Part shown: positions 5,371 to 58,867 of the stretch, piece by piece
Layout: each line of letters opens with the position of its first letter
How positions within the stretch are numbered: position 1 is the stretch's first letter
Assembly (NCBI GenBank): GCA_048886745.1
Contig: JBHLKK010000001.1
Span: 33,925-97,924, forward strand
Length of the DNA stretch: 64,000 nucleotides
Direction of reading: 5' to 3'
Origin: Candidatus Hodarchaeota archaeon
GTDB taxonomy: Archaea; Asgardarchaeota; Odinarchaeia; Odinarchaeales; JBHLKK01
Position numbers and translations under genes: made by a program
Notes under the pieces: generated by a model
The model's input: the letters and a program-made list of their open reading frames with translations, nothing else
Databases searched by the model: none
What the model was told of the DNA's origin: nothing

Positions 5371-5730
5371 TCACCTAAATATCTTTGAATACCATTTGGG
5401 CAGCTCATTGACGTAATTATCTAGGTTCTTAGATATTTTCTCAGTCAGTTCCAATATTTTCTCGGTGTATTGTTCTGGTTTTTCCTTTTCACTCAATATC
5501 AGAGCTGTAGCTCTTTCCGAATTGTTATCAAAATAACTATAAACCTTCAGCCTTCCAACTTTAGTTTTGATGAACTCCACAGGATTGATGCCTACTTTCA
5601 TATTTGGAAAATGCATGCTAAAGACAGTTGTTGCAAATGAGGGAGGGACCCACGCACTTCTGGTACATCTTGCCTCAATAACTCCTCCAAGGCGATTATC
5701 CCACTTGATTATTACGATACCTAGTGGCAA
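5371..5730 (-). CDS. Hypothetical small protein, possible single longin/roadblock-like domain
   Basis: The 119-aa N-terminus MPLGIVIIKWDNRLGGVIEA...FATTVFSMHF loosely follows the pattern of the neighbouring longin-like paralogs. The C-terminus is helical. Confidence 0.45.
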   Translation of the reverse strand: MPLGIVIIKWDNRLGGVIEARCTRSAWVPPSFATTVFSMHFPNMKVGINPVEFIKTKVGRLKVYSYFDNNSERATALILSEKEKPEQYTEKILELTEKISKNLDNYVNELPKWYSKIFR

Positions 5731-6008
5731 CTTTGGTCTCTCCGATTTTTCCTTCTATAGGTCAAATTACGTTATAATTCTTTTGATGTCTTTTGAGTGA
5801 AGGTCATAAATTTGGGGGTCGGTCGAGTAGAATTGTAGTTGTTTGCTTATCAAAAGTATTTTATTACGTTGATATAAACATTTCTAAATCTGTTGCGATT
5901 TTCTCAGCCGACAAAAATAGAGACTGAGAAATGCTTAAGTAACTGGGAAAGTATAGGTAATATCAACAACGCAGAATCAACAACTCCCAAATTTCTGGTG
6001 CAGATAAA

Positions 6009-6677
6009 ATGCCAGTTCACGGTATATGGATAATCGATAGCGCTGGACTCTGCATATTCCACAAGAACTATAGTAATATTAACATAGACCCCCAGCTATT
6101 TTCGGGGTTCTTTACAGCGCTCGTTCAATTTTCAACTGAGATCAATAAGGTCCAGCTAGAACGTATAGTTCTGGGATATCTAGACATATCATATACTAAT
6201 GATCGGGGCATTCACTTTGTTGTGTGTACAAATAAAGGAGAGTCTGCCATCAGAATTCTTAGGGGCATAAGAGAAACTTTCAGCGACCATTTTAAGGATG
6301 AAATGATTGTTCTAAGTGATATGCTAAGAGACGGACCAGGCTTAAGTCTGCTTAATAGGTTTGAAAAAGAGCTTGATAGAATTGTTGGCTACGCCCCTGA
6401 CGCAGAGTTTCGTCCTTCAAGGTATGTTTCCATCACAAGAGTTCTAAAAAGAGGATCTGAAATGAGGAATACTTTGGAAAGAAAGTTCGGAACTGATGGA
6501 ATAGCCATAATGCTTCTATGTGATGGAAGTCGAGCTATCACAGATATAGCTGATGAGCTCAATATCCCAGAAGAAGAAGTTGCCAAGATTGTTGATTTCG
6601 GAGTTAAAGAGAAAATATTGGGAACAATGCGCGTCAGGAGCGATGTTGATCAGGTAGCAGATCAGAGTGTTCTATGA
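6009..6677 (+). CDS. Longin/roadblock-like N-terminal domain + C-terminal winged-helix protein
   Basis: N-terminus MPVHGIWIIDSAGLCIFHKNY...DPQLFSGFFTALVQFSTEI resembles TRAPP Bet5/sedlin-type longin folds. The C-terminal part ITDIADELNIPEEEVAKIVDFGVKEKIL is wHTH-like. Confidence 0.6.
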   Translation: MPVHGIWIIDSAGLCIFHKNYSNINIDPQLFSGFFTALVQFSTEINKVQLERIVLGYLDISYTNDRGIHFVVCTNKGESAIRILRGIRETFSDHFKDEMIVLSDMLRDGPGLSLLNRFEKELDRIVGYAPDAEFRPSRYVSITRVLKRGSEMRNTLERKFGTDGIAIMLLCDGSRAITDIADELNIPEEEVAKIVDFGVKEKILGTMRVRSDVDQVADQSVL

Positions 6678-6730
6678 AACTGGATATTTTAGATTTGATA
6701 AATCATACGAAATCTCTGAAAAAAAAGTTG

Positions 6731-7093
6731 TTATGCGCCAAACATTTTTCTGACTCGGGATACAAGTAATCGCCCTTTCACACCATGAGATTTAACTTCA
6801 ACCATTCCCTTTTCCTCAGCTTCTTTATACTCCTCTTTGCTCAAGGTATTCAGAAGCATACTCAGAGTCCCATTATCTCCAGTTATTGAAACATGGGGTT
6901 TTTTTAGTAAATCCTCATTTAACTTAACATCATTCTTTGAGATTTCGGCGGAAAGTGTTTCACCAGTATCTGTAGCTGTAACATTTATCTTTGCCGAACC
7001 AACCAGTCTCAAAATGGTTCGCACTTTCCTGCTTTGAAGCATACTTGTCCCAACCACTTTCAATTTCTCGTTGACAGCTTCATATAGAGACAT
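6731..7093 (-). CDS. Hypothetical protein, weak SCP2 (sterol-carrier)-like pattern
   Basis: 120 aa. Size and the segments VSITGDNGTLSMLLNTLS...VEVKSHGVKGRLLVSRVRKMF are reminiscent of SCP2 domains. The function call is weak. Confidence 0.4.
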   Translation of the reverse strand: MSLYEAVNEKLKVVGTSMLQSRKVRTILRLVGSAKINVTATDTGETLSAEISKNDVKLNEDLLKKPHVSITGDNGTLSMLLNTLSKEEYKEAEEKGMVEVKSHGVKGRLLVSRVRKMFGA

Positions 7094-7274
7094 ACATTAT
7101 CCTCCTACGGTCTACTGTAAAACGCCCTACCCTATTGGCTAGCTTCACCTTGCGGGGATTAGGATGAAGTGAATAGGTGGTATTTTAACGTTGTGAGGAA
7201 AAGACCTAGTTGTCTTTAGGGATGAGTTCTGCAAACAAAATAGCTCCTCATGATATGAGTGAGACGTTTTTTGA

Positions 7275-8045
7275 TTAGCTTATGTATGATTGACGATCTG
7301 AGGCTTCAGGCAATCTCTTCTCAAGACGTCCTCTCAGCTTCGCGAAAGCCTTTTCCATAGTTGCAATTTGTTTGTCCAGTGCACTCATATCAATTCCAAT
7401 ATTGAACCATTTGCCCAATATTTGAACAATCGCTTTGGAAGCCTTTGGATCGGTCGCTAAAACGGGTATTGTCTCTGCCAAGAGACAGACTCCTTCAATT
7501 CCATATTTAGCTTTACCCCATGCAGGGATTATGCCATTTGCGCCCATAATGACCCCTTCCTTCATCACCTTGCATTGATCATGTTTGGCGAAGATGTCAA
7601 GAAGTTCATGCGAAGTCGAAGAAACAAAGATGCTGGGCTCAGAGGAGACATTATCCGTAACATAGGCACCTGTTGAGACAATAGTCTTAACCCCATGAGA
7701 ATTGCAGAAGTCGCTGATGTGATCAGAAAAAGCAAATATTCCTAGAGAGGTTGTTGGTTGGAAATCGCCACTTATGAAGAATAAATCATTTACTCCCTTA
7801 GGATCTTTCCAGAAGTAGATCGTTGATCGCGGTACATGAAGCTTCCCGTTTGCCCCTACAGCAACCTGAGCTGGGAAATCATGATAGAAAATCAAAGCGA
7901 TCTTCTCGGCTTTTAGGCTATCTGCAATGTTGAGGACGGCCCCCTTTCCAACCATTGCTATTCCGGGTAGGCCTACAATAGCCACAGGACTATTCATCTT
8001 GGCTAGATCCAGTTTCTTTAGAATCTCTGTGCGGGGTCCATTCAT
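7275..8045 (-). CDS. PAC2-family proteasome assembly chaperone-like protein
   Basis: SPVAIVGLPGIAMVGKGAVLNIADSL...IFYHDFPAQVAVGANGKL...LFFISGDFQP matches the archaeal PAC2 pattern. The ORF-track start at 8129 is a TTG. ATG 8045 is preceded by GTGAAGGA, so I prefer it. Confidence 0.65.
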   Translation of the reverse strand: MNGPRTEILKKLDLAKMNSPVAIVGLPGIAMVGKGAVLNIADSLKAEKIALIFYHDFPAQVAVGANGKLHVPRSTIYFWKDPKGVNDLFFISGDFQPTTSLGIFAFSDHISDFCNSHGVKTIVSTGAYVTDNVSSEPSIFVSSTSHELLDIFAKHDQCKVMKEGVIMGANGIIPAWGKAKYGIEGVCLLAETIPVLATDPKASKAIVQILGKWFNIGIDMSALDKQIATMEKAFAKLRGRLEKRLPEASDRQSYIS

Positions 8046-8135
8046 CTGGGTCAAATCCTTCACTCCCTTATTGAAAAATGGAGACAAACTCCACTTAAAA
8101 AGATATTGAATGTCATAGATTCCATACAAGAGAAG

Positions 8136-9059
8136 TCACGATTCAGCATTACTTGTGATTCGAGACTTAATATCTGGTACTTTGATCTGGACAAGTTCGA
8201 CAATCTTTGGAATCATTGATTCATCAATGTCCAATTCCTTAATCAGCTCATCTCCTGTAATTTCCTCTTTGAAACGAAGCAGATTGCAGATCCTAGTAAC
8301 ATAGCTATATGTCCGGCTAATCCTGTTTTTGAGTATTTCAAGTCCTCTTGGATCTTGCATGTCTTTTACTTCCAAAACCATTTGAATTAATGAGGTCATC
8401 CAAGAGACATTCTCTGATTCCGGAAGTCCGTATTTCTCAGATAGGCCGGTATCAAGATAGTATACAACATATTTGTCAGGTTTGTCAACAGATGCCAGCT
8501 CATCTGGTTTAACACCTATCAATTGAGATTCTTCTATTTTGTTTTCTTCAGTTACCTGTGCTATTGACACACTCTCAGGAGAAATGCTGGATAATGTGCA
8601 TAGCAGTATGCGAACCTCGTTCCTATTATCCCCAGCAATGAAGATTTTATCGCCATTAATTACGTGATAAATAAGTTTCGCAAAATCACTGGCAGAAACG
8701 ATTCTCAGAGTATCCTCTATCGATTTGAGCGCAGCGATATCAATCATTGTAGCGATATTTTCTTTCTTGAGATTTAGAATGAACGCAAGTGATATTTGGG
8801 ATAAACGCCAGTTGATTTGTGATCTTGGATAGTCTCTCCCACTAACGACTATTAATATGTGATCACTCATCTTCTTGAACCAAAAAGTAAAGTCACTTGT
8901 GGATATTTCTTCGACACTCTGACCTGTCAATACGCTGAGAAAACTATTTTGGGCACTAAAATACCCAGACATGAGTGTAGCATCAACCGCGATGGTCCCG
9001 TACATTCTAGAAATGAGTGGGATCCCGTTTATCTCCAAAATGTAGACATTGTGTATCAT
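8136..9059 (-). CDS. Longin-like + DENN-core-like + winged-helix protein (hypothetical)
   Basis: N-terminus MIHNVYILEINGIPLISRMYG...DATLMSGYFSAQNSF is longin-like. The middle part LIYHVINGDKIFIAGDNRNEVRILLCTLSSISP ... QLIGVKPDELAS...KYVVYYLDTG mirrors cDENN motifs. The C-terminus is wHTH-like. Start is ATG at 9059. Confidence 0.6.
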   Translation of the reverse strand: MIHNVYILEINGIPLISRMYGTIAVDATLMSGYFSAQNSFLSVLTGQSVEEISTSDFTFWFKKMSDHILIVVSGRDYPRSQINWRLSQISLAFILNLKKENIATMIDIAALKSIEDTLRIVSASDFAKLIYHVINGDKIFIAGDNRNEVRILLCTLSSISPESVSIAQVTEENKIEESQLIGVKPDELASVDKPDKYVVYYLDTGLSEKYGLPESENVSWMTSLIQMVLEVKDMQDPRGLEILKNRISRTYSYVTRICNLLRFKEEITGDELIKELDIDESMIPKIVELVQIKVPDIKSRITSNAES

Positions 9060-9240: not shown

Positions 9241-9747
9241 TTGAAAGGTGTCTATACTCTAGTGTTCATAATTCCACAGGAAATCCGGATTAAGATCGGA
9301 AGTCTGGGAACCGTCAGATTTGAAACAGGCATTTATGCTTACATTGGCTCAGCATTAGGTGTGGGCATTGCCAGTCTTAAAGGTAGAATAAAACGACATA
9401 TTTCGAAGAGGAAGAGAATCTTCTGGCACATTGATTATCTTTTGATGCACGAGGAAGTGCAAATTATCGAGGTCATTTATGCTAGGACCAACCTAAAAAT
9501 GGAATGTGAGATTTCAGGAATATTAGAGAGCTCTCCCCTAGTTACCACTCCTATCGAGAGATTTGGTGCATCTGACTGTGAGAGCGGGTGTAGGAGTCAT
9601 CTTTGTCATATCAAAACAAACATGGAAGAAGCCCTGCGAATAATAATCCGCTGCTATAGCAGAGCAGGGCAAGAGCCAGAAAGATTCAGATTAAATCGAT
9701 ATGGCACTCCCAAACTCAAGGTATCATTAATGTTGAGGTCTCTTTGA
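9241..9747 (+). CDS. GIY-YIG-like nuclease family protein (DUF123)
   Basis: GVYTLVF...GIYAYIGSALG...LKGRIKRHISKRKRIFWHIDYLL is the characteristic DUF123 signature. The start codon is TTG. Confidence 0.75.
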   Translation: MKGVYTLVFIIPQEIRIKIGSLGTVRFETGIYAYIGSALGVGIASLKGRIKRHISKRKRIFWHIDYLLMHEEVQIIEVIYARTNLKMECEISGILESSPLVTTPIERFGASDCESGCRSHLCHIKTNMEEALRIIIRCYSRAGQEPERFRLNRYGTPKLKVSLMLRSL

Positions 9748-39579: not shown

Positions 39580-40590
39580 TTAGATTGATCTGCAAGCGAA
39601 AAGTGCGTTTCCCAGGATATTTGGCTTCGTGAAATCCGCCTTTACAAAAGTATCCTCGAAGAAGTCCTTTTGAGGATACCCTTTGAAGTCAACGGAGGCA
39701 CGAAATAAGACATCTAGATAAGCTATGCTATCCATATCCTTTCTTAGTGGTTGCATACCGCAAAAACTAGCTCCTGTCTCAATTAATGTTCTGATATTCC
39801 TGAGAGCAATCAGAGTCTGATCTTCAGTGAACCAATGGAAAAACAATGATGAAAATATACCATCTACTTTTTCTTCAATGGGAAGATTCTTCAGAACATC
39901 ACAAACTATGAATTCAACTCGATCACTCAAATTTGCAATATTAATGTTCTCTCTTGCAATTTCAATAGCTTTTTTCGATCGGTCCAATGCAAAAACCTTT
40001 TTTGGATTTGCTACTTGTATCAGGTCAATGGTGCTCCACCCGGTGCCGCATCCCAGATCCAAAAGCACGCAATCTCGGGGCATTCTACCCCATTTAAGTG
40101 AAATCTCCCTTGCGGTTTTGTACATTTGACTTGAGTATATGCTATCCCAAATAGCCAATAATAGTTCTCGCGTAAATTCCCTAGTTCTTACATGACCTCT
40201 TAGGGCATAAGGTAGATAAGTAGAAAAGATTTCGCCAAGCTTGGCAAAAGCAAGTCCGATTTTTTGGAGTTTTCTTTCGGCTTTTGATATTTCCACCTTC
40301 CTTCCATTCCAGGAATATAGATTCCCATTCTTTTTTAGAGTGCCCATTTCTACTAAAACACCCAAGAAATCCTTTGTAAGCGTTTCATTCTTGTATTTCA
40401 TTCTGGTAACGATCTGCTCAAATGATAACGGTGATATGAGAAGATCTGGAAATCCTTCTTTTATAGAGACTTGTGTTAACAATCTTTCGCTAAGTCGCTG
40501 AGAGCCCTTGTTAAGTATTCTTAGACTTGGACTAAGCGCTTTGCCCATGATTTTCAGTTTCGTAATGGTGTTTCTGATACTGTTGCTCAT
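39580..40590 (-). CDS. Class I SAM-dependent methyltransferase with N-terminal winged-helix/dimerisation-like domain (O-methyltransferase-like layout)
   Basis: Motif I is CVLLDLGCGTGWSTIDL, and post-I/II are KVFALDRSKKAIEIA and DGIFSSLFFHWF. Confidence 0.75.
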   Translation of the reverse strand: MSNSIRNTITKLKIMGKALSPSLRILNKGSQRLSERLLTQVSIKEGFPDLLISPLSFEQIVTRMKYKNETLTKDFLGVLVEMGTLKKNGNLYSWNGRKVEISKAERKLQKIGLAFAKLGEIFSTYLPYALRGHVRTREFTRELLLAIWDSIYSSQMYKTAREISLKWGRMPRDCVLLDLGCGTGWSTIDLIQVANPKKVFALDRSKKAIEIARENINIANLSDRVEFIVCDVLKNLPIEEKVDGIFSSLFFHWFTEDQTLIALRNIRTLIETGASFCGMQPLRKDMDSIAYLDVLFRASVDFKGYPQKDFFEDTFVKADFTKPNILGNALFACRSI

Positions 40591-40618: not shown

Positions 40619-42073
40619 TCAGGAAACCAGGTAGATTATCTCTCTTTTTTGCAGATTCATTAGTGCCTTTGTTGCGGACTCTCTTGTTAGTTTTATGTCA
40701 CCTTTTTCAATGAATTTCTCCAGTTCATTGGCATTCAGCCTGCTGTCTGATATTAGGTTCACAAGCTTGTCGATTTCCCTTATTGGAATCTTGTTCTTAC
40801 TGACAAACAGCCTGAAGCCTTTTGAGTCTCTATAATACTCCCAATATGCTTTTGAGCCAAAATCATCGATTGAGTATAGCTGCGTTTGGGGTCTAACAAT
40901 TTCACCGTTCTCTATACGGTGAAGGTGTGACCCGAAATATCGTCTCACCAATCGTTCGACTGGTCTAAACACTGAGAGGTCGCCATTCCAATATTCTAGT
41001 ATATGATTGAATCTTACTTCAAAGGTATCTACAAGGACTCTCATCTTGCTTCTCACTTCATCTTCTGCCGTCTCAGTCGTGCAGACCACAGTAACACAGA
41101 TCTTCTGGCCCCATTCACATAATATCTGTAGATTGCCCTTACGTATTCCTGATAGTTCCCCCTCACTAGGTAACATCTGTTTTGCGAATGTTGAGACTGC
41201 GGTCAAAAAGGCAGAAACCACATCTACTTCATATTCAGCATTCTCAGATTTCGCATTGAATAAGCAATAACCATTTCTATCGATTATATAGACATCATAT
41301 ATTTGAGGTGTGAGAGCAAAGATTTCTAGTTGACCTCCCCCCATTATTGATAGAGGAACCATTCCTTCATTATTTGCCAGTGCGAAACTTATCCAATCTG
41401 AATTAGGATCTCTGTTCTTCATTCTTCTTATTCTAATTTGTCTTTGATGATTTCCTGCAACCTCAGTAAATCTAAACTCAATTTCACCATCAAAGCTACT
41501 TTGAACTCGTCGTCTTAGTTCTTCGGGTTGTACATCTGGTGTAAGTGTACATAGACAGGACGCATTATCCAGACGGATATTTGCTACAAGCTCATCGAGG
41601 AAATTCATAATGAATTGACCTTCTCGATCATATTCAATTAGATCCGACAGTGAATCTATCACAAGACGTACTTTGTCGTATTTTCTCATGTAGCTAAATG
41701 CAGAAGCAATTTTCAAGTTTAGGAGAGAGAGATTTCTTGGGTCAAAATAACCACCTTCGACAAACATGCTCTTCGAAGGGGAACCTTCGATGAACATCAG
41801 TTGCTCGTTTTCCAAGTAATTCGTTATATCCCATCCCATGCGTTTCATCATAGAGGTGACCGTATTTGAGGATTCGCTCAAAGCTACATATATGCCGCCT
41901 TCACCGTTTTCTAATCCCTCATGAATGAATTTCTGACACATTATAGACTTGCCTACTCCCGACTCTCCTACGACAACTATCGCAGCCGAAGGGGGGAAAC
42001 CTCCTCCCAACATATTGTCTAAGAATACAATTCCTGATTTTTCTAGGTTGCTTTTCCTGAGTTCATTAAACAA
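40619..42073 (-). CDS. KaiC/RadA-like RecA-superfamily ATPase fused to a longin-like domain and C-terminal winged helix
   Basis: Walker A is VVVGESGVGKS and Walker B is VRLVIDSLSDL. Residues ~260-350 read IYDVYIIDRNGYCLFNAKSE...VDVVSAFLTAVSTFAKQM (longin/Bet5-like). The C-terminus is LTRESATKALMNLQKREIIYLVS. Confidence 0.75.
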   Translation of the reverse strand: MFNELRKSNLEKSGIVFLDNMLGGGFPPSAAIVVVGESGVGKSIMCQKFIHEGLENGEGGIYVALSESSNTVTSMMKRMGWDITNYLENEQLMFIEGSPSKSMFVEGGYFDPRNLSLLNLKIASAFSYMRKYDKVRLVIDSLSDLIEYDREGQFIMNFLDELVANIRLDNASCLCTLTPDVQPEELRRRVQSSFDGEIEFRFTEVAGNHQRQIRIRRMKNRDPNSDWISFALANNEGMVPLSIMGGGQLEIFALTPQIYDVYIIDRNGYCLFNAKSENAEYEVDVVSAFLTAVSTFAKQMLPSEGELSGIRKGNLQILCEWGQKICVTVVCTTETAEDEVRSKMRVLVDTFEVRFNHILEYWNGDLSVFRPVERLVRRYFGSHLHRIENGEIVRPQTQLYSIDDFGSKAYWEYYRDSKGFRLFVSKNKIPIREIDKLVNLISDSRLNANELEKFIEKGDIKLTRESATKALMNLQKREIIYLVS

Positions 42074-58342: not shown

Positions 58343-58867
58343 TCAAACAGAAAGTACTTTTCGTACCATCATTCGAGCTAACATGGAAAAACAGTCAACA
58401 ACATTTACTCCGAACTTGGCAGACGACTCATAATAGGGAATTCCCCGATCATAGGCTAGCTTTTCCCCTTCTTCACGACTGATCATGCGACTATTGGTCA
58501 TATCTACCTTATTCGCAACCAGAATCATTGGAATTATACTACACTGATTTACAACTTCATTAAACCACTTATCCATGTTTTTGAATGTTTCACTTCTTGT
58601 TACGTCATAGACCAACAGACACCCTTTGGCACCCCTATAGTAGAGAGATCTTAGATTGCTAAATCTTTCTTGACCACCTGTATCCCAGATTTGCAGCTTC
58701 ACATGCAGTCCGTCCACATCTATGGTTTTTATGGCGAATGATACGCCTACGGTAAGCTTATATTCGTCACTAAAACTCTCCTCGCTAAACCTGGTGGTCA
58801 AGGATGTTTTCCCTACTGCCCCATCTCCAACTACGATGGTCTTGAAAAGATAATCATAATCAGGCAT
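58343..58867 (-). CDS. Rab/Ras-like small GTPase (eukaryote-like)
   Basis: G1 GDGAVGKT, switch I YKLTVGVSF, G3 WDTGGQERF, G4 NKVD, G5 SSAK. There is no C-terminal Cys prenylation motif (the protein ends RKVLSV). Confidence 0.9.
   Translation of the reverse strand: MPDYDYLFKTIVVGDGAVGKTSLTTRFSEESFSDEYKLTVGVSFAIKTIDVDGLHVKLQIWDTGGQERFSNLRSLYYRGAKGCLLVYDVTRSETFKNMDKWFNEVVNQCSIIPMILVANKVDMTNSRMISREEGEKLAYDRGIPYYESSAKFGVNVVDCFSMLARMMVRKVLSV

Follow-up and report, generated by a model that had tools for sequence, protein, structure and literature searches.

Two families of longin-domain genes adjoin one another in an Asgard archaeal genome and its relatives

Four longin-type genes in the window

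We examined a 64,000-nucleotide stretch of DNA from a Candidatus Hodarchaeota archaeon (the window; C1:33925-97924 of genome G000, which spans 1.75 Mb and is 78% complete), in which a first-pass annotation had singled out four genes as paralogs opening with a common longin- or roadblock-like module. Open reading frames (ORFs) were found at all four positions and are named P0001 (5371..5730, minus strand, 119 amino acids), P0002 (6009..6677, plus strand, 222 amino acids), P0003 (8136..9059, minus strand, 307 amino acids) and P0004 (40619..42073, minus strand, 484 amino acids). They fall into two separate longin families, the genes of which lie beside each other in other genomes of the phylum far more often than expected by chance, a pattern that probably reflects heterodimeric longin platforms acting on nucleoside triphosphatases (NTPases).

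The opening pattern described for all four genes ends in a helix-1 motif, D/E-x-x-[LVI]-x-S-[GA]-[FY]-[FL]-[ST]-A-x-x-x-F, which is present in P0002 (DPQLFSGFFTALVQF), P0003 (DATLMSGYFSAQNSF) and the C-terminal half of P0004 (EVDVVSAFLTAVSTF) and is absent from P0001. A loosened regular expression for this motif recovers nine ORFs in the whole genome compared with 0.0 in 50 shuffles, and the opening pattern covers what in the TRAPPC1/Bet5 and MON1 longins are the first two strands and the first helix. Pairwise BLASTP shows P0002 to bridge the group, with E-values of 2e-6 against both P0003 and P0004, the latter two matching each other at only 0.027. Together with iterated hidden Markov model (HMM) searches this upholds the proposed paralogy for P0002, P0003 and P0004. 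P0001 was considered as a fourth paralog and rejected, as its BLASTP E-value is 2.3 and its hhalign probability 37%, it is misaligned by MAFFT, and it does not enter the iterated HMM set; it belongs to the second longin family.

Family 1 is a large longin family with many architectures

In the window's own genome the iterated HMM search converged on 13 paralogs sharing a domain of about 125 amino acids, which we refer to as family 1. The domain occupies residues 1-127 of P0002 (6009..6389, plus strand; HMM E-value 1.2e-35; TRAPPC1/MON1-like), residues 1-120 of P0003 (8700..9059, minus strand; 3e-35, with a Pfam Fuz_longin_1 match at 0.013) and residues 256-381 of P0004 (40931..41308, minus strand; 2.9e-43, with a Pfam Sybindin match at 0.03). 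A profile of the 13 domains matches BET5 (3.1e-5) and the first longin domain of MON1 (6e-4) in the PDB, followed by zeta-COP (0.015), the AP sigma subunits (0.02), TRAPPC1 (0.03) and MglB (0.98). When 76 family-1 members are compared with Pfam, some reach Fuz_longin_1 (2e-8), Longin or Clat_adaptor_s, and the other domains found among them are Ras/Arf (5/76), TrmB, HTH_47, Robl_LC7 and KaiC.

Family 1 has the longin fold, and the suggested likeness of the N-terminal modules to Bet5/TRAPPC1 is borne out by the PDB profile matches. AlphaFold2 models of P0003 and P0001 show the longin topology bbabbbaa (b, strand; a, helix) with no N-terminal helix, and P0002 and P0004 are assigned the same topology because they belong to the same HMM family as P0003. 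Membership of the Roadblock/LC7 group (PF03259), which had been offered alongside the longin fold, was rejected: the models begin with strand 1 and lack the N-terminal helix, and none of the four proteins matches Robl_LC7 in Pfam. The genome does contain seven to nine canonical Robl_LC7 genes, none of them P0001-P0004. Despite its small size, it has about 27 longin/Roadblock genes (13 + 7 + 7), besides a dozen or more small GTPases.

A search of 1.84 billion representative proteins with the family-1 profile gives 9198 matches at E<=1e-3, of which 2444 reach E<=1e-10; the shortest matched proteins have 116 amino acids and the longest more than 3000. Relatives that bear names come from metagenome-assembled genomes (MAGs) of Promethearchaeota, Odinarchaeia and Jordarchaeales. 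Word-index homolog searches with P0002 and P0003 returned only relatives of at least 76% identity; with P0003 as query, matches are found in 200/301 genomes of the phylum at E<=1e-3, mostly through its N-terminal domain.

The family-1 domains of this genome are found in several contexts. Three are fused to small GTPases (C20_10_987, C86_2221_3081 and C2_31731_32576), several genes end in a C-terminal part resembling a helix-turn-helix (HTH), and three domains form the cytoplasmic tails of large membrane proteins. These last (C8:17077-20568, C100:33-1514 and C91:1622-3868, all outside the window) are membrane or surface proteins of 493-1163 amino acids in which the family-1 longin and an HTH-like end lie beyond the last transmembrane helix, and in appearance they are receptor-type counterparts of P0002.

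A second family with a predicted longin fold

P0001 is a stand-alone protein, and its AlphaFold2 model (predicted local distance difference test score, pLDDT, 91.2; predicted template modelling score, pTM, 0.85) has the complete bbabbbaa topology. The best 50 Foldseek matches in the PDB are all longin, roadblock or related profilin folds, with template modelling (TM) scores of 0.55-0.65; they include Sec22b (4.8e-3), AP-3 mu (TM 0.65), DENND10 (TM 0.63), Ykt6, VAMP7, the AP mu and sigma subunits, LAMTOR, FLCN, NPRL and MglB. On the strength of the model, the family of P0001 (family 2) is a longin family even though its sequences match no longin.

Three residues are invariant in family 2, namely W10, D11 and G15 (WD-x3-G, running from the end of strand 1 to the start of strand 2), within the consensus MPxGxxVxxWDNxxGAVxEAKYP. 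The same spacing is seen at W33, D34, G38 and P39 in the equivalent hairpin of C9orf72 (numbering from PMC12290439); in family 2 the residue after the glycine is G, A, T or S, and P in only 1/16. There are seven copies in this genome, and family 2 is present in 146/301 genomes of the phylum, either as a protein of about 125 amino acids or as the N-terminus of proteins of about 360 amino acids that also contain either HTH-like repeats or TrmB; one paralog has a bona fide TrmB domain (4.1e-10). Every public homolog is annotated as 'hypothetical'.

Genes of the two families are recurrently paired

Of 19 loci from other genomes that carry a family-2 gene, 12 (63%) also contain a family-1 gene no more than 1.5 kb away, against a background of 2.7% of ORFs computed in the window's own genome; the binomial P is 6e-15, or 1.4e-3 if four arrangements are counted as independent. 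In the window itself P0001 and P0002 lie head-to-head across a 278-nucleotide spacer. This divergent pair recurs in four genomes of genus g25, which belongs to another family of the phylum, with a family-2 gene of about 130 amino acids and a full-length P0002 ortholog (27% identity, E 8e-21), and it is not accidental. In other lineages, a family-2 gene of about 360 amino acids is followed by a family-1 longin-GTPase fusion, at distances ranging from a 4-nucleotide overlap to a gap of about 40 nucleotides, and this pair may be the same as an Asgard operon already described. At L045-L051 and L055, the larger family-2 proteins preceding the longin-small-GTPase fusion consist of a longin and two ArsR-like, HTH-looking repeats, an architecture that by analogy recalls NPRL2/3.

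A further arrangement involves KaiC-like ATPases. On another contig of the genome (C56:4788-7094, minus strand, outside the window) a family-1 gene (377 amino acids) is followed in operon-like fashion by a family-2 gene (150 amino acids) and a KaiC-like ATPase gene (244 amino acids), and in genome G053 a KaiC-like gene likewise follows a family-2 ortholog (locus L053). Both parallel the KaiC-longin fusion of P0004.

Another arrangement is a conserved cluster that includes P0003 and P0001. In genomes G001, G013 and G035 the order is a divergent DUF123 gene, the P0003 ortholog, a PAC2 gene, a gene for a protein of about 119 amino acids and the P0001 ortholog, the last four sharing a strand and separated by some 25-100 nucleotides. 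The P0003-PAC2-119aa-P0001 cluster is present in 3/4 sister-family genomes, other MAGs being too fragmented to tell. G024 has the PAC2 gene, the 119-amino-acid gene and the P0001 ortholog adjacent to one another, and no full-length P0003 ortholog was found in it. The window has the same gene order, but here P0002 stands head-to-head with P0001.

The genes interspersed among the longins were also characterized. The PAC2-family (proteasome assembly chaperone) protein is encoded at 7275..8129 (minus strand), as the first-pass annotation had it, with a Pfam PAC2 (PF09754) match of 4.1e-30 and 105.7 bits and a TIGR00162 match of 3.9e-39, and PAC2 lies directly downstream of the P0003 ortholog in G001, G013, G035 and G053. 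Its start is called at a TTG at 8129; the orthologs begin MNGPRTEIL or MDEFKIKQ, and the true start is probably an ATG near 8045. All of the PAC2 orthologs end in a conserved R-Q-[SP]-Y-I-S, with the tyrosine as the antepenultimate residue, a placement that differs from that in the canonical HbYX motif. Between PAC2 and P0001 is a gene for a conserved protein of about 119-120 amino acids (6731..7093, minus strand), with orthologs in the same position in G001, G013, G024 and G035 (E 2e-9 to 2e-16). It had been described as possibly SCP2-like, a reading for which Pfam, NCBIfam and a three-sequence profile against the PDB gave no support; the protein has no Pfam or PDB sequence match. Divergent from P0003 at 9241..9747 (plus strand) is a gene for a DUF123 protein (Pfam 5.3e-26), a neighbour kept in G001, G013 and G053.

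P0002 is a longin followed by a winged helix

A C-terminal winged helix-turn-helix (wHTH) had been proposed for three of the four proteins, and this stands for P0002, being only suggestive for P0003 and P0004. In P0002 it covers residues ~160-212 (6486..6644, plus strand), with the motif CDGxRxxxDIAxxLxhPxxxV... A profile of this C-terminal family matches LrpA (1.5e-4), CodY (7e-4) and MarR (1e-3) in the PDB, as well as AdcR and ArsR (range to 5e-3), and in Pfam TrmB is matched by 12/12 members and HTH_47 by 10/12, including P0002 itself at 0.0083. At the level of these profiles the P0002 C-terminus is confirmed as a wHTH. A DUF742 identity was considered and rejected, as it is matched by 2/12 members and weakly (0.079). 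The presumed recognition helix, PEEEVAKIVDFGVKEK, reads as acidic, which argues mildly against DNA binding.

P0003 resembles longin-DENN proteins

The AlphaFold2 model of P0003, built from an alignment of seven orthologs together with paralogous N-domains, has a pLDDT of 75.7 and a pTM of 0.58. Within residues 1-120 the longin topology consists of strands 2-9 and 14-19, helix 27-45, strands 51-53, 57-64 and 67-74, and helices 79-98 and 103-120. This is followed by a five-stranded alpha/beta domain at residues 123-232 (8364..8693, minus strand), in which a G, an S-P and an I-G are invariant, and by a helical end at residues 239-300 (8160..8345, minus strand) with helices 239-263, 269-276, 280-290 and 297-300. 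The central domain fits the core DENN fold as published, in which five strands form part of an alpha/beta sandwich of three layers (PMC3521125). In Foldseek searches of the PDB the best matches run over the whole length of P0003 and are DENND1B (1.3e-5), DENND1A (1.8e-5), C9orf72 (4.8e-5), FLCN (3.9e-4) and SMCR8 (7.6e-4); Roadblock proteins, LAMTOR, MglB, TRAPPC1 and MON1 rank below these and align to the N-domain alone. Pfam Folliculin_C also matches residues 111-170 at profile positions 3-63 (0.0017, 18.4 bits against a cut-off of 27), and such a match is found in 2/6 P0003 orthologs (0.0017-0.003).

P0003 had been put forward as a plain longin with a wHTH, a description at odds with the alpha/beta domain in its centre and with the DENN-module proteins that it matches over its whole length. 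On balance it seems to us probable that P0003 consists of a longin, a DENN-like core and a helical end. The end has weak matches to Pfam families of wHTH type (PF0610-like_N, 0.08-0.23; TFIIE_alpha, 0.09) and fits a d-DENN or a three-helix HTH-like unit equally, such that a winged helix there is suggestive at most. Full-length P0003 orthologs are found only in the window's own order (seven genomes of 1.3-2.0 Mb).

P0004 joins a KaiC-type ATPase to a longin

P0004 is 31 kb from the other three genes. Residues 12-236 (41366..42040, minus strand) form a KaiC/RecA-type ATPase domain (Pfam KaiC, 4.9e-35, 121 bits; NCBIfam ArlH, 5.3e-26) with the Walker A motif GESGVGKS. The longin domain follows, and then a C-terminal module at residues 385-484 (40622..40921, minus strand) with the motif YY-x-D...FYRDSRGF... 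and an HTH-like end; by alignment, this module is also found in stand-alone proteins of about 230 amino acids. The fusion is restricted to the window's own genus, and elsewhere the C-terminal half is a separate gene of about 230 amino acids. A wHTH in P0004 gave no significant profile match and scattered weak HTH ones, from which a winged helix at its C-terminus is suggestive. Positioned 28 nucleotides downstream on the same strand is a 336-amino-acid ORF (39580..40590) with a class-I S-adenosylmethionine-methyltransferase-like motif (VLLDLGCGTGWS), which may be co-transcribed with the KaiC-longin fusion.

Interpretation and alternative explanations

The explanation that we favor overall, and think likely, is that family-1 and family-2 longins form a heterodimeric platform that regulates NTPases. 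Heterodimerisation is proposed because the genes of the two families adjoin far above chance. Longin pairs that heterodimerise are familiar from eukaryotes, as with TRAPPC1/C4, Mon1/Ccz1, FLCN/FNIP, C9orf72/SMCR8 and NPRL2/3. The platform would engage an NTPase switch and control which nucleotide state it is in. Arf/Rag-like small GTPases are candidate partners because three family-1 domains are fused to small GTPases here and because the longin-GTPase fusions lie directly after family-2 genes elsewhere, and KaiC-like ATPases because of the P0004 fusion and the C56 operon. The wHTH and DENN-like parts would be specificity or output modules, and the wHTH end of P0002 would act as an adaptor or output module, preferably directed to a protein or GTPase as in DUF742/MfpC and NPRL2/3, DNA binding being the alternative. 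The co-transcribed PAC2 protein could conceivably play a part in such a platform.

Several observations weigh against this interpretation. The evidence for a contact between family-1 and family-2 proteins is indirect, coming from gene adjacency and from the fusions to GTPase domains, and the 12 syntenic loci are not independent, representing roughly four to five arrangements. The only small GTPase in the window, a Rab-like protein of 174 amino acids (58343..58867, minus strand), is 49 kb away and adjoins no longin gene, and an operon partner GTPase sought within the window was not found. Family 2 has no significant sequence match to any known longin in Pfam or by PDB profile, and its likeness to C9orf72 is not supported beyond the WD-x3-G motif, with an HMM score of -0.7 bits that falls under several of 500 shuffles, for a C9orf72 sequence confirmed at the four hairpin residues. 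For P0003, the DENN assignment comes from a model of medium confidence, its global TM-scores with DENN proteins are 0.33-0.40 at a root-mean-square deviation of ~15 Å, its DENN E-values improve on those of the longin-only matches by a factor of only about ten, and a sequence profile of residues 118-307 against the PDB has no match and retrieves no DENN protein. Finally, longins of the GTPase-activating protein (GAP) type (FLCN, NPRL2, SMCR8 and C9orf72) carry a GP motif before strand 2 and a catalytic arginine finger (PMC12290439), and this motif is absent here, with G-I-P in the P0003 orthologs; because of this absence the direction of regulation, guanine-nucleotide exchange factor (GEF) versus GAP, is not callable.

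A bolder extension of the heterodimer proposal is that P0003 and P0001 are the subunits of a minimal archaeal longin-DENN heterodimer like C9orf72-SMCR8 or FLCN-FNIP, co-transcribed with PAC2 in an Odinarchaeia-like lineage with a reduced genome, and that family-1/family-2 heterodimers are ancestral to the eukaryotic longin GEF and GAP platforms and act on both small GTPases and KaiC-type ATPases. Taken as a whole we think this improbable.

The competing view with the greatest weight, which nevertheless strikes us as rather unlikely, is that P0002, proteins of the P0004 type and the larger family-2 proteins are one-component transcription regulators, in which DNA is the target of the wHTH (the 278-bp P0001/P0002 intergenic region, for instance) and the longin is a sensor or dimerisation domain without an NTPase. 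The profile matches of the P0002 C-terminus to LrpA, CodY, MarR, AdcR and ArsR and to TrmB in all 12 members are what such regulators would give, as is the TrmB domain of one family-2 paralog, and a divergent pair with a conserved spacer is the classic layout of an autoregulated regulator. Against it stand the acidic character of the presumed P0002 recognition helix (PEEEVAKIVDFGVKEK), the direct fusions of this longin domain to small GTPases and KaiC, and the precedents of NPRL2/3 and MfpC, in which a wHTH attached to a longin/Roadblock system acts on proteins (PMC3521125, PMC11343762).

The remaining explanations concern the cluster. The centre of P0003 could be a generic Rossmann-like alpha/beta domain, and P0003, the 120-amino-acid protein and P0001 could be accessory factors of the PAC2 chaperone in proteasome assembly or regulation, in keeping with the conserved P0003-PAC2-119aa-P0001 order and its short gaps, the lack of a sequence-profile match of P0003 to DENN proteins, the low Foldseek TM-scores and the sub-threshold Folliculin_C score (18.4 bits versus 27). 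We regard this as quite unlikely, because the five best structural matches of P0003 are all whole-length DENN-module proteins, no other alpha/beta family appears among the best 50 Foldseek matches (34 at E<=1e-3), and the weak Folliculin_C match is independent and falls at the start of the profile, directly past the longin domain; moreover, we know of no role for longin domains with PAC2. That the genes cluster by chance, as functionally unrelated neighbours from a large and recently duplicating family, is very improbable. The family is indeed very large, with 13 + 7 copies here and 9198 cluster representatives in metagenomes, and P0004 is 31 kb from the other three genes, but the clustered genes are only 19-31% identical and not recent duplicates, the neighbourhoods persist between families of the phylum whose proteins are 27-53% identical, and the 63% adjacency compares with a background of 2.7%.

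Comparison with known systems

The class of proteins to which these genes belong is known. Expansion of the longin/Roadblock proteins in Asgard archaea was described by Klinger 2016 (as cited in PMC10933270), and predictions for Lokiarchaeum, cited in Tran et al. 2024 (PMC10933270), give 41 longin and 38 Roadblock domains and 37 Rab-like proteins. Tran et al. also described longin-GTPase fusions, modelled a TRAPPC1-like longin and noted that MK-D1 GTPase genes are generally outside operons with longin genes. Liu et al. 2020/2021 (10.1101/2020.10.19.343400) assigned 130 asCOGs to the Roadblock/longin superfamily and reported DENN proteins (some with an FLCN-like longin-DENN architecture), NPRL2-like longins and many lineage-specific fusions, and FLCN/SMCR8-type Asgard longins were reported in a 2025 study. 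Published work on Asgard archaea thus already covers expansions of longin/Roadblock proteins, fusions of longins to GTPases, DENN proteins and NPRL2-like longins. The window's genes belong to this known expansion of eukaryotic signature proteins, with which they share the expanded set, the fusions to GTPases, multidomain architectures specific to lineages and a longin of TRAPPC1 type. Nor can the combination of a longin with a wHTH be said to lack a eukaryotic counterpart, as first proposed, because Npr2/Npr3 (NPRL2/NPRL3) consist of a longin and tandem wHTH domains (Zhang et al. 2012, PMC3521125), and longin-DENN is the architecture of FLCN, C9orf72 and the DENND proteins.

Among the individual systems, family 1 has its best sequence-profile matches in TRAPPC1/Bet5 (sybindin) and the first longin domain of MON1. 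Sybindin (PF04099) is matched by P0004 only, at 14.8 bits and under the 25-bit cut-off, and family-1 domains come joined to wHTH, DENN-like, KaiC, GTPase and membrane-receptor modules, none of which TRAPP subunits have. No match to Bet3/TRAPP (PF04051) was obtained in the genome, in a search whose control was also silent, so that absence is not proven. P0003, with an N-terminal longin followed in its model by a predicted five-stranded centre and helical end, resembles the DENN-module proteins (DENND1A/B, FLCN, C9orf72, SMCR8 and the Asgard DENN proteins), but it is much smaller (307 amino acids), falls under the Pfam DENN and Folliculin_C cut-offs and has no GP motif. It is confined to one order (seven genomes) and is encoded beside PAC2, and not in an operon with Roadblock and Rab-like GTPase genes of the kind described by Liu et al.

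NPRL2/NPRL3 of GATOR1 likewise have an N-terminal longin followed by winged helices (PMC3521125). They differ in that no Pfam NPR2/NPR3 match was obtained at E<=1, P0002 has a single TrmB-like wHTH and not a triad, and its longin is closest to TRAPPC1/MON1, with no GP motif or arginine finger identified. In the Mfp/conservon system of actinobacteria a Roadblock protein (MfpD) acts as GAP and a DUF742-HTH protein (MfpC) as GEF for a Ras-like GTPase (MfpB), so that here too a platform and an HTH protein work together on a small GTPase (PMC11343762; see also PMC9769811), and by analogy P0002 looks like a single-chain version of it. The Mfp components are encoded by separate genes and here are fused, the topology here is longin and not Roadblock, there is no histidine-kinase-like partner, and DUF742 is matched weakly by 2/12 members of the P0002 family (0.079).

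The eukaryotic signature protein literature compared here (Liu et al., Tran et al. and Klinger 2016 in the form in which it is cited) mentions no longin with a TrmB-like wHTH, KaiC-longin fusion, PAC2 cluster or adjacency of two longin families. What is new relative to that literature is the placement of family-2 genes beside family-1 genes, the PAC2-containing cluster and the link to KaiC.

By themselves the genes are ordinary for an Asgard genome, and the pairing of two families is the useful new detail. It provides testable pairs, of family 2 with a longin-GTPase fusion, with a longin-wHTH protein and with the longin-DENN-like cluster. The GEFs and GAPs of eukaryotic membrane traffic and nutrient signalling have longin heterodimers as their base, as in the TRAPP core, Mon1-Ccz1, FLCN-FNIP, C9orf72-SMCR8 and GATOR1, and the recurrent adjacency suggests that heterodimeric longin platforms are older than eukaryotes. 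That such a platform may extend beyond small GTPases is hinted at by the fusion and the operon with KaiC-like ATPases. Asgard longins are known to be many, and the pairing bears on how they are wired to their partners.

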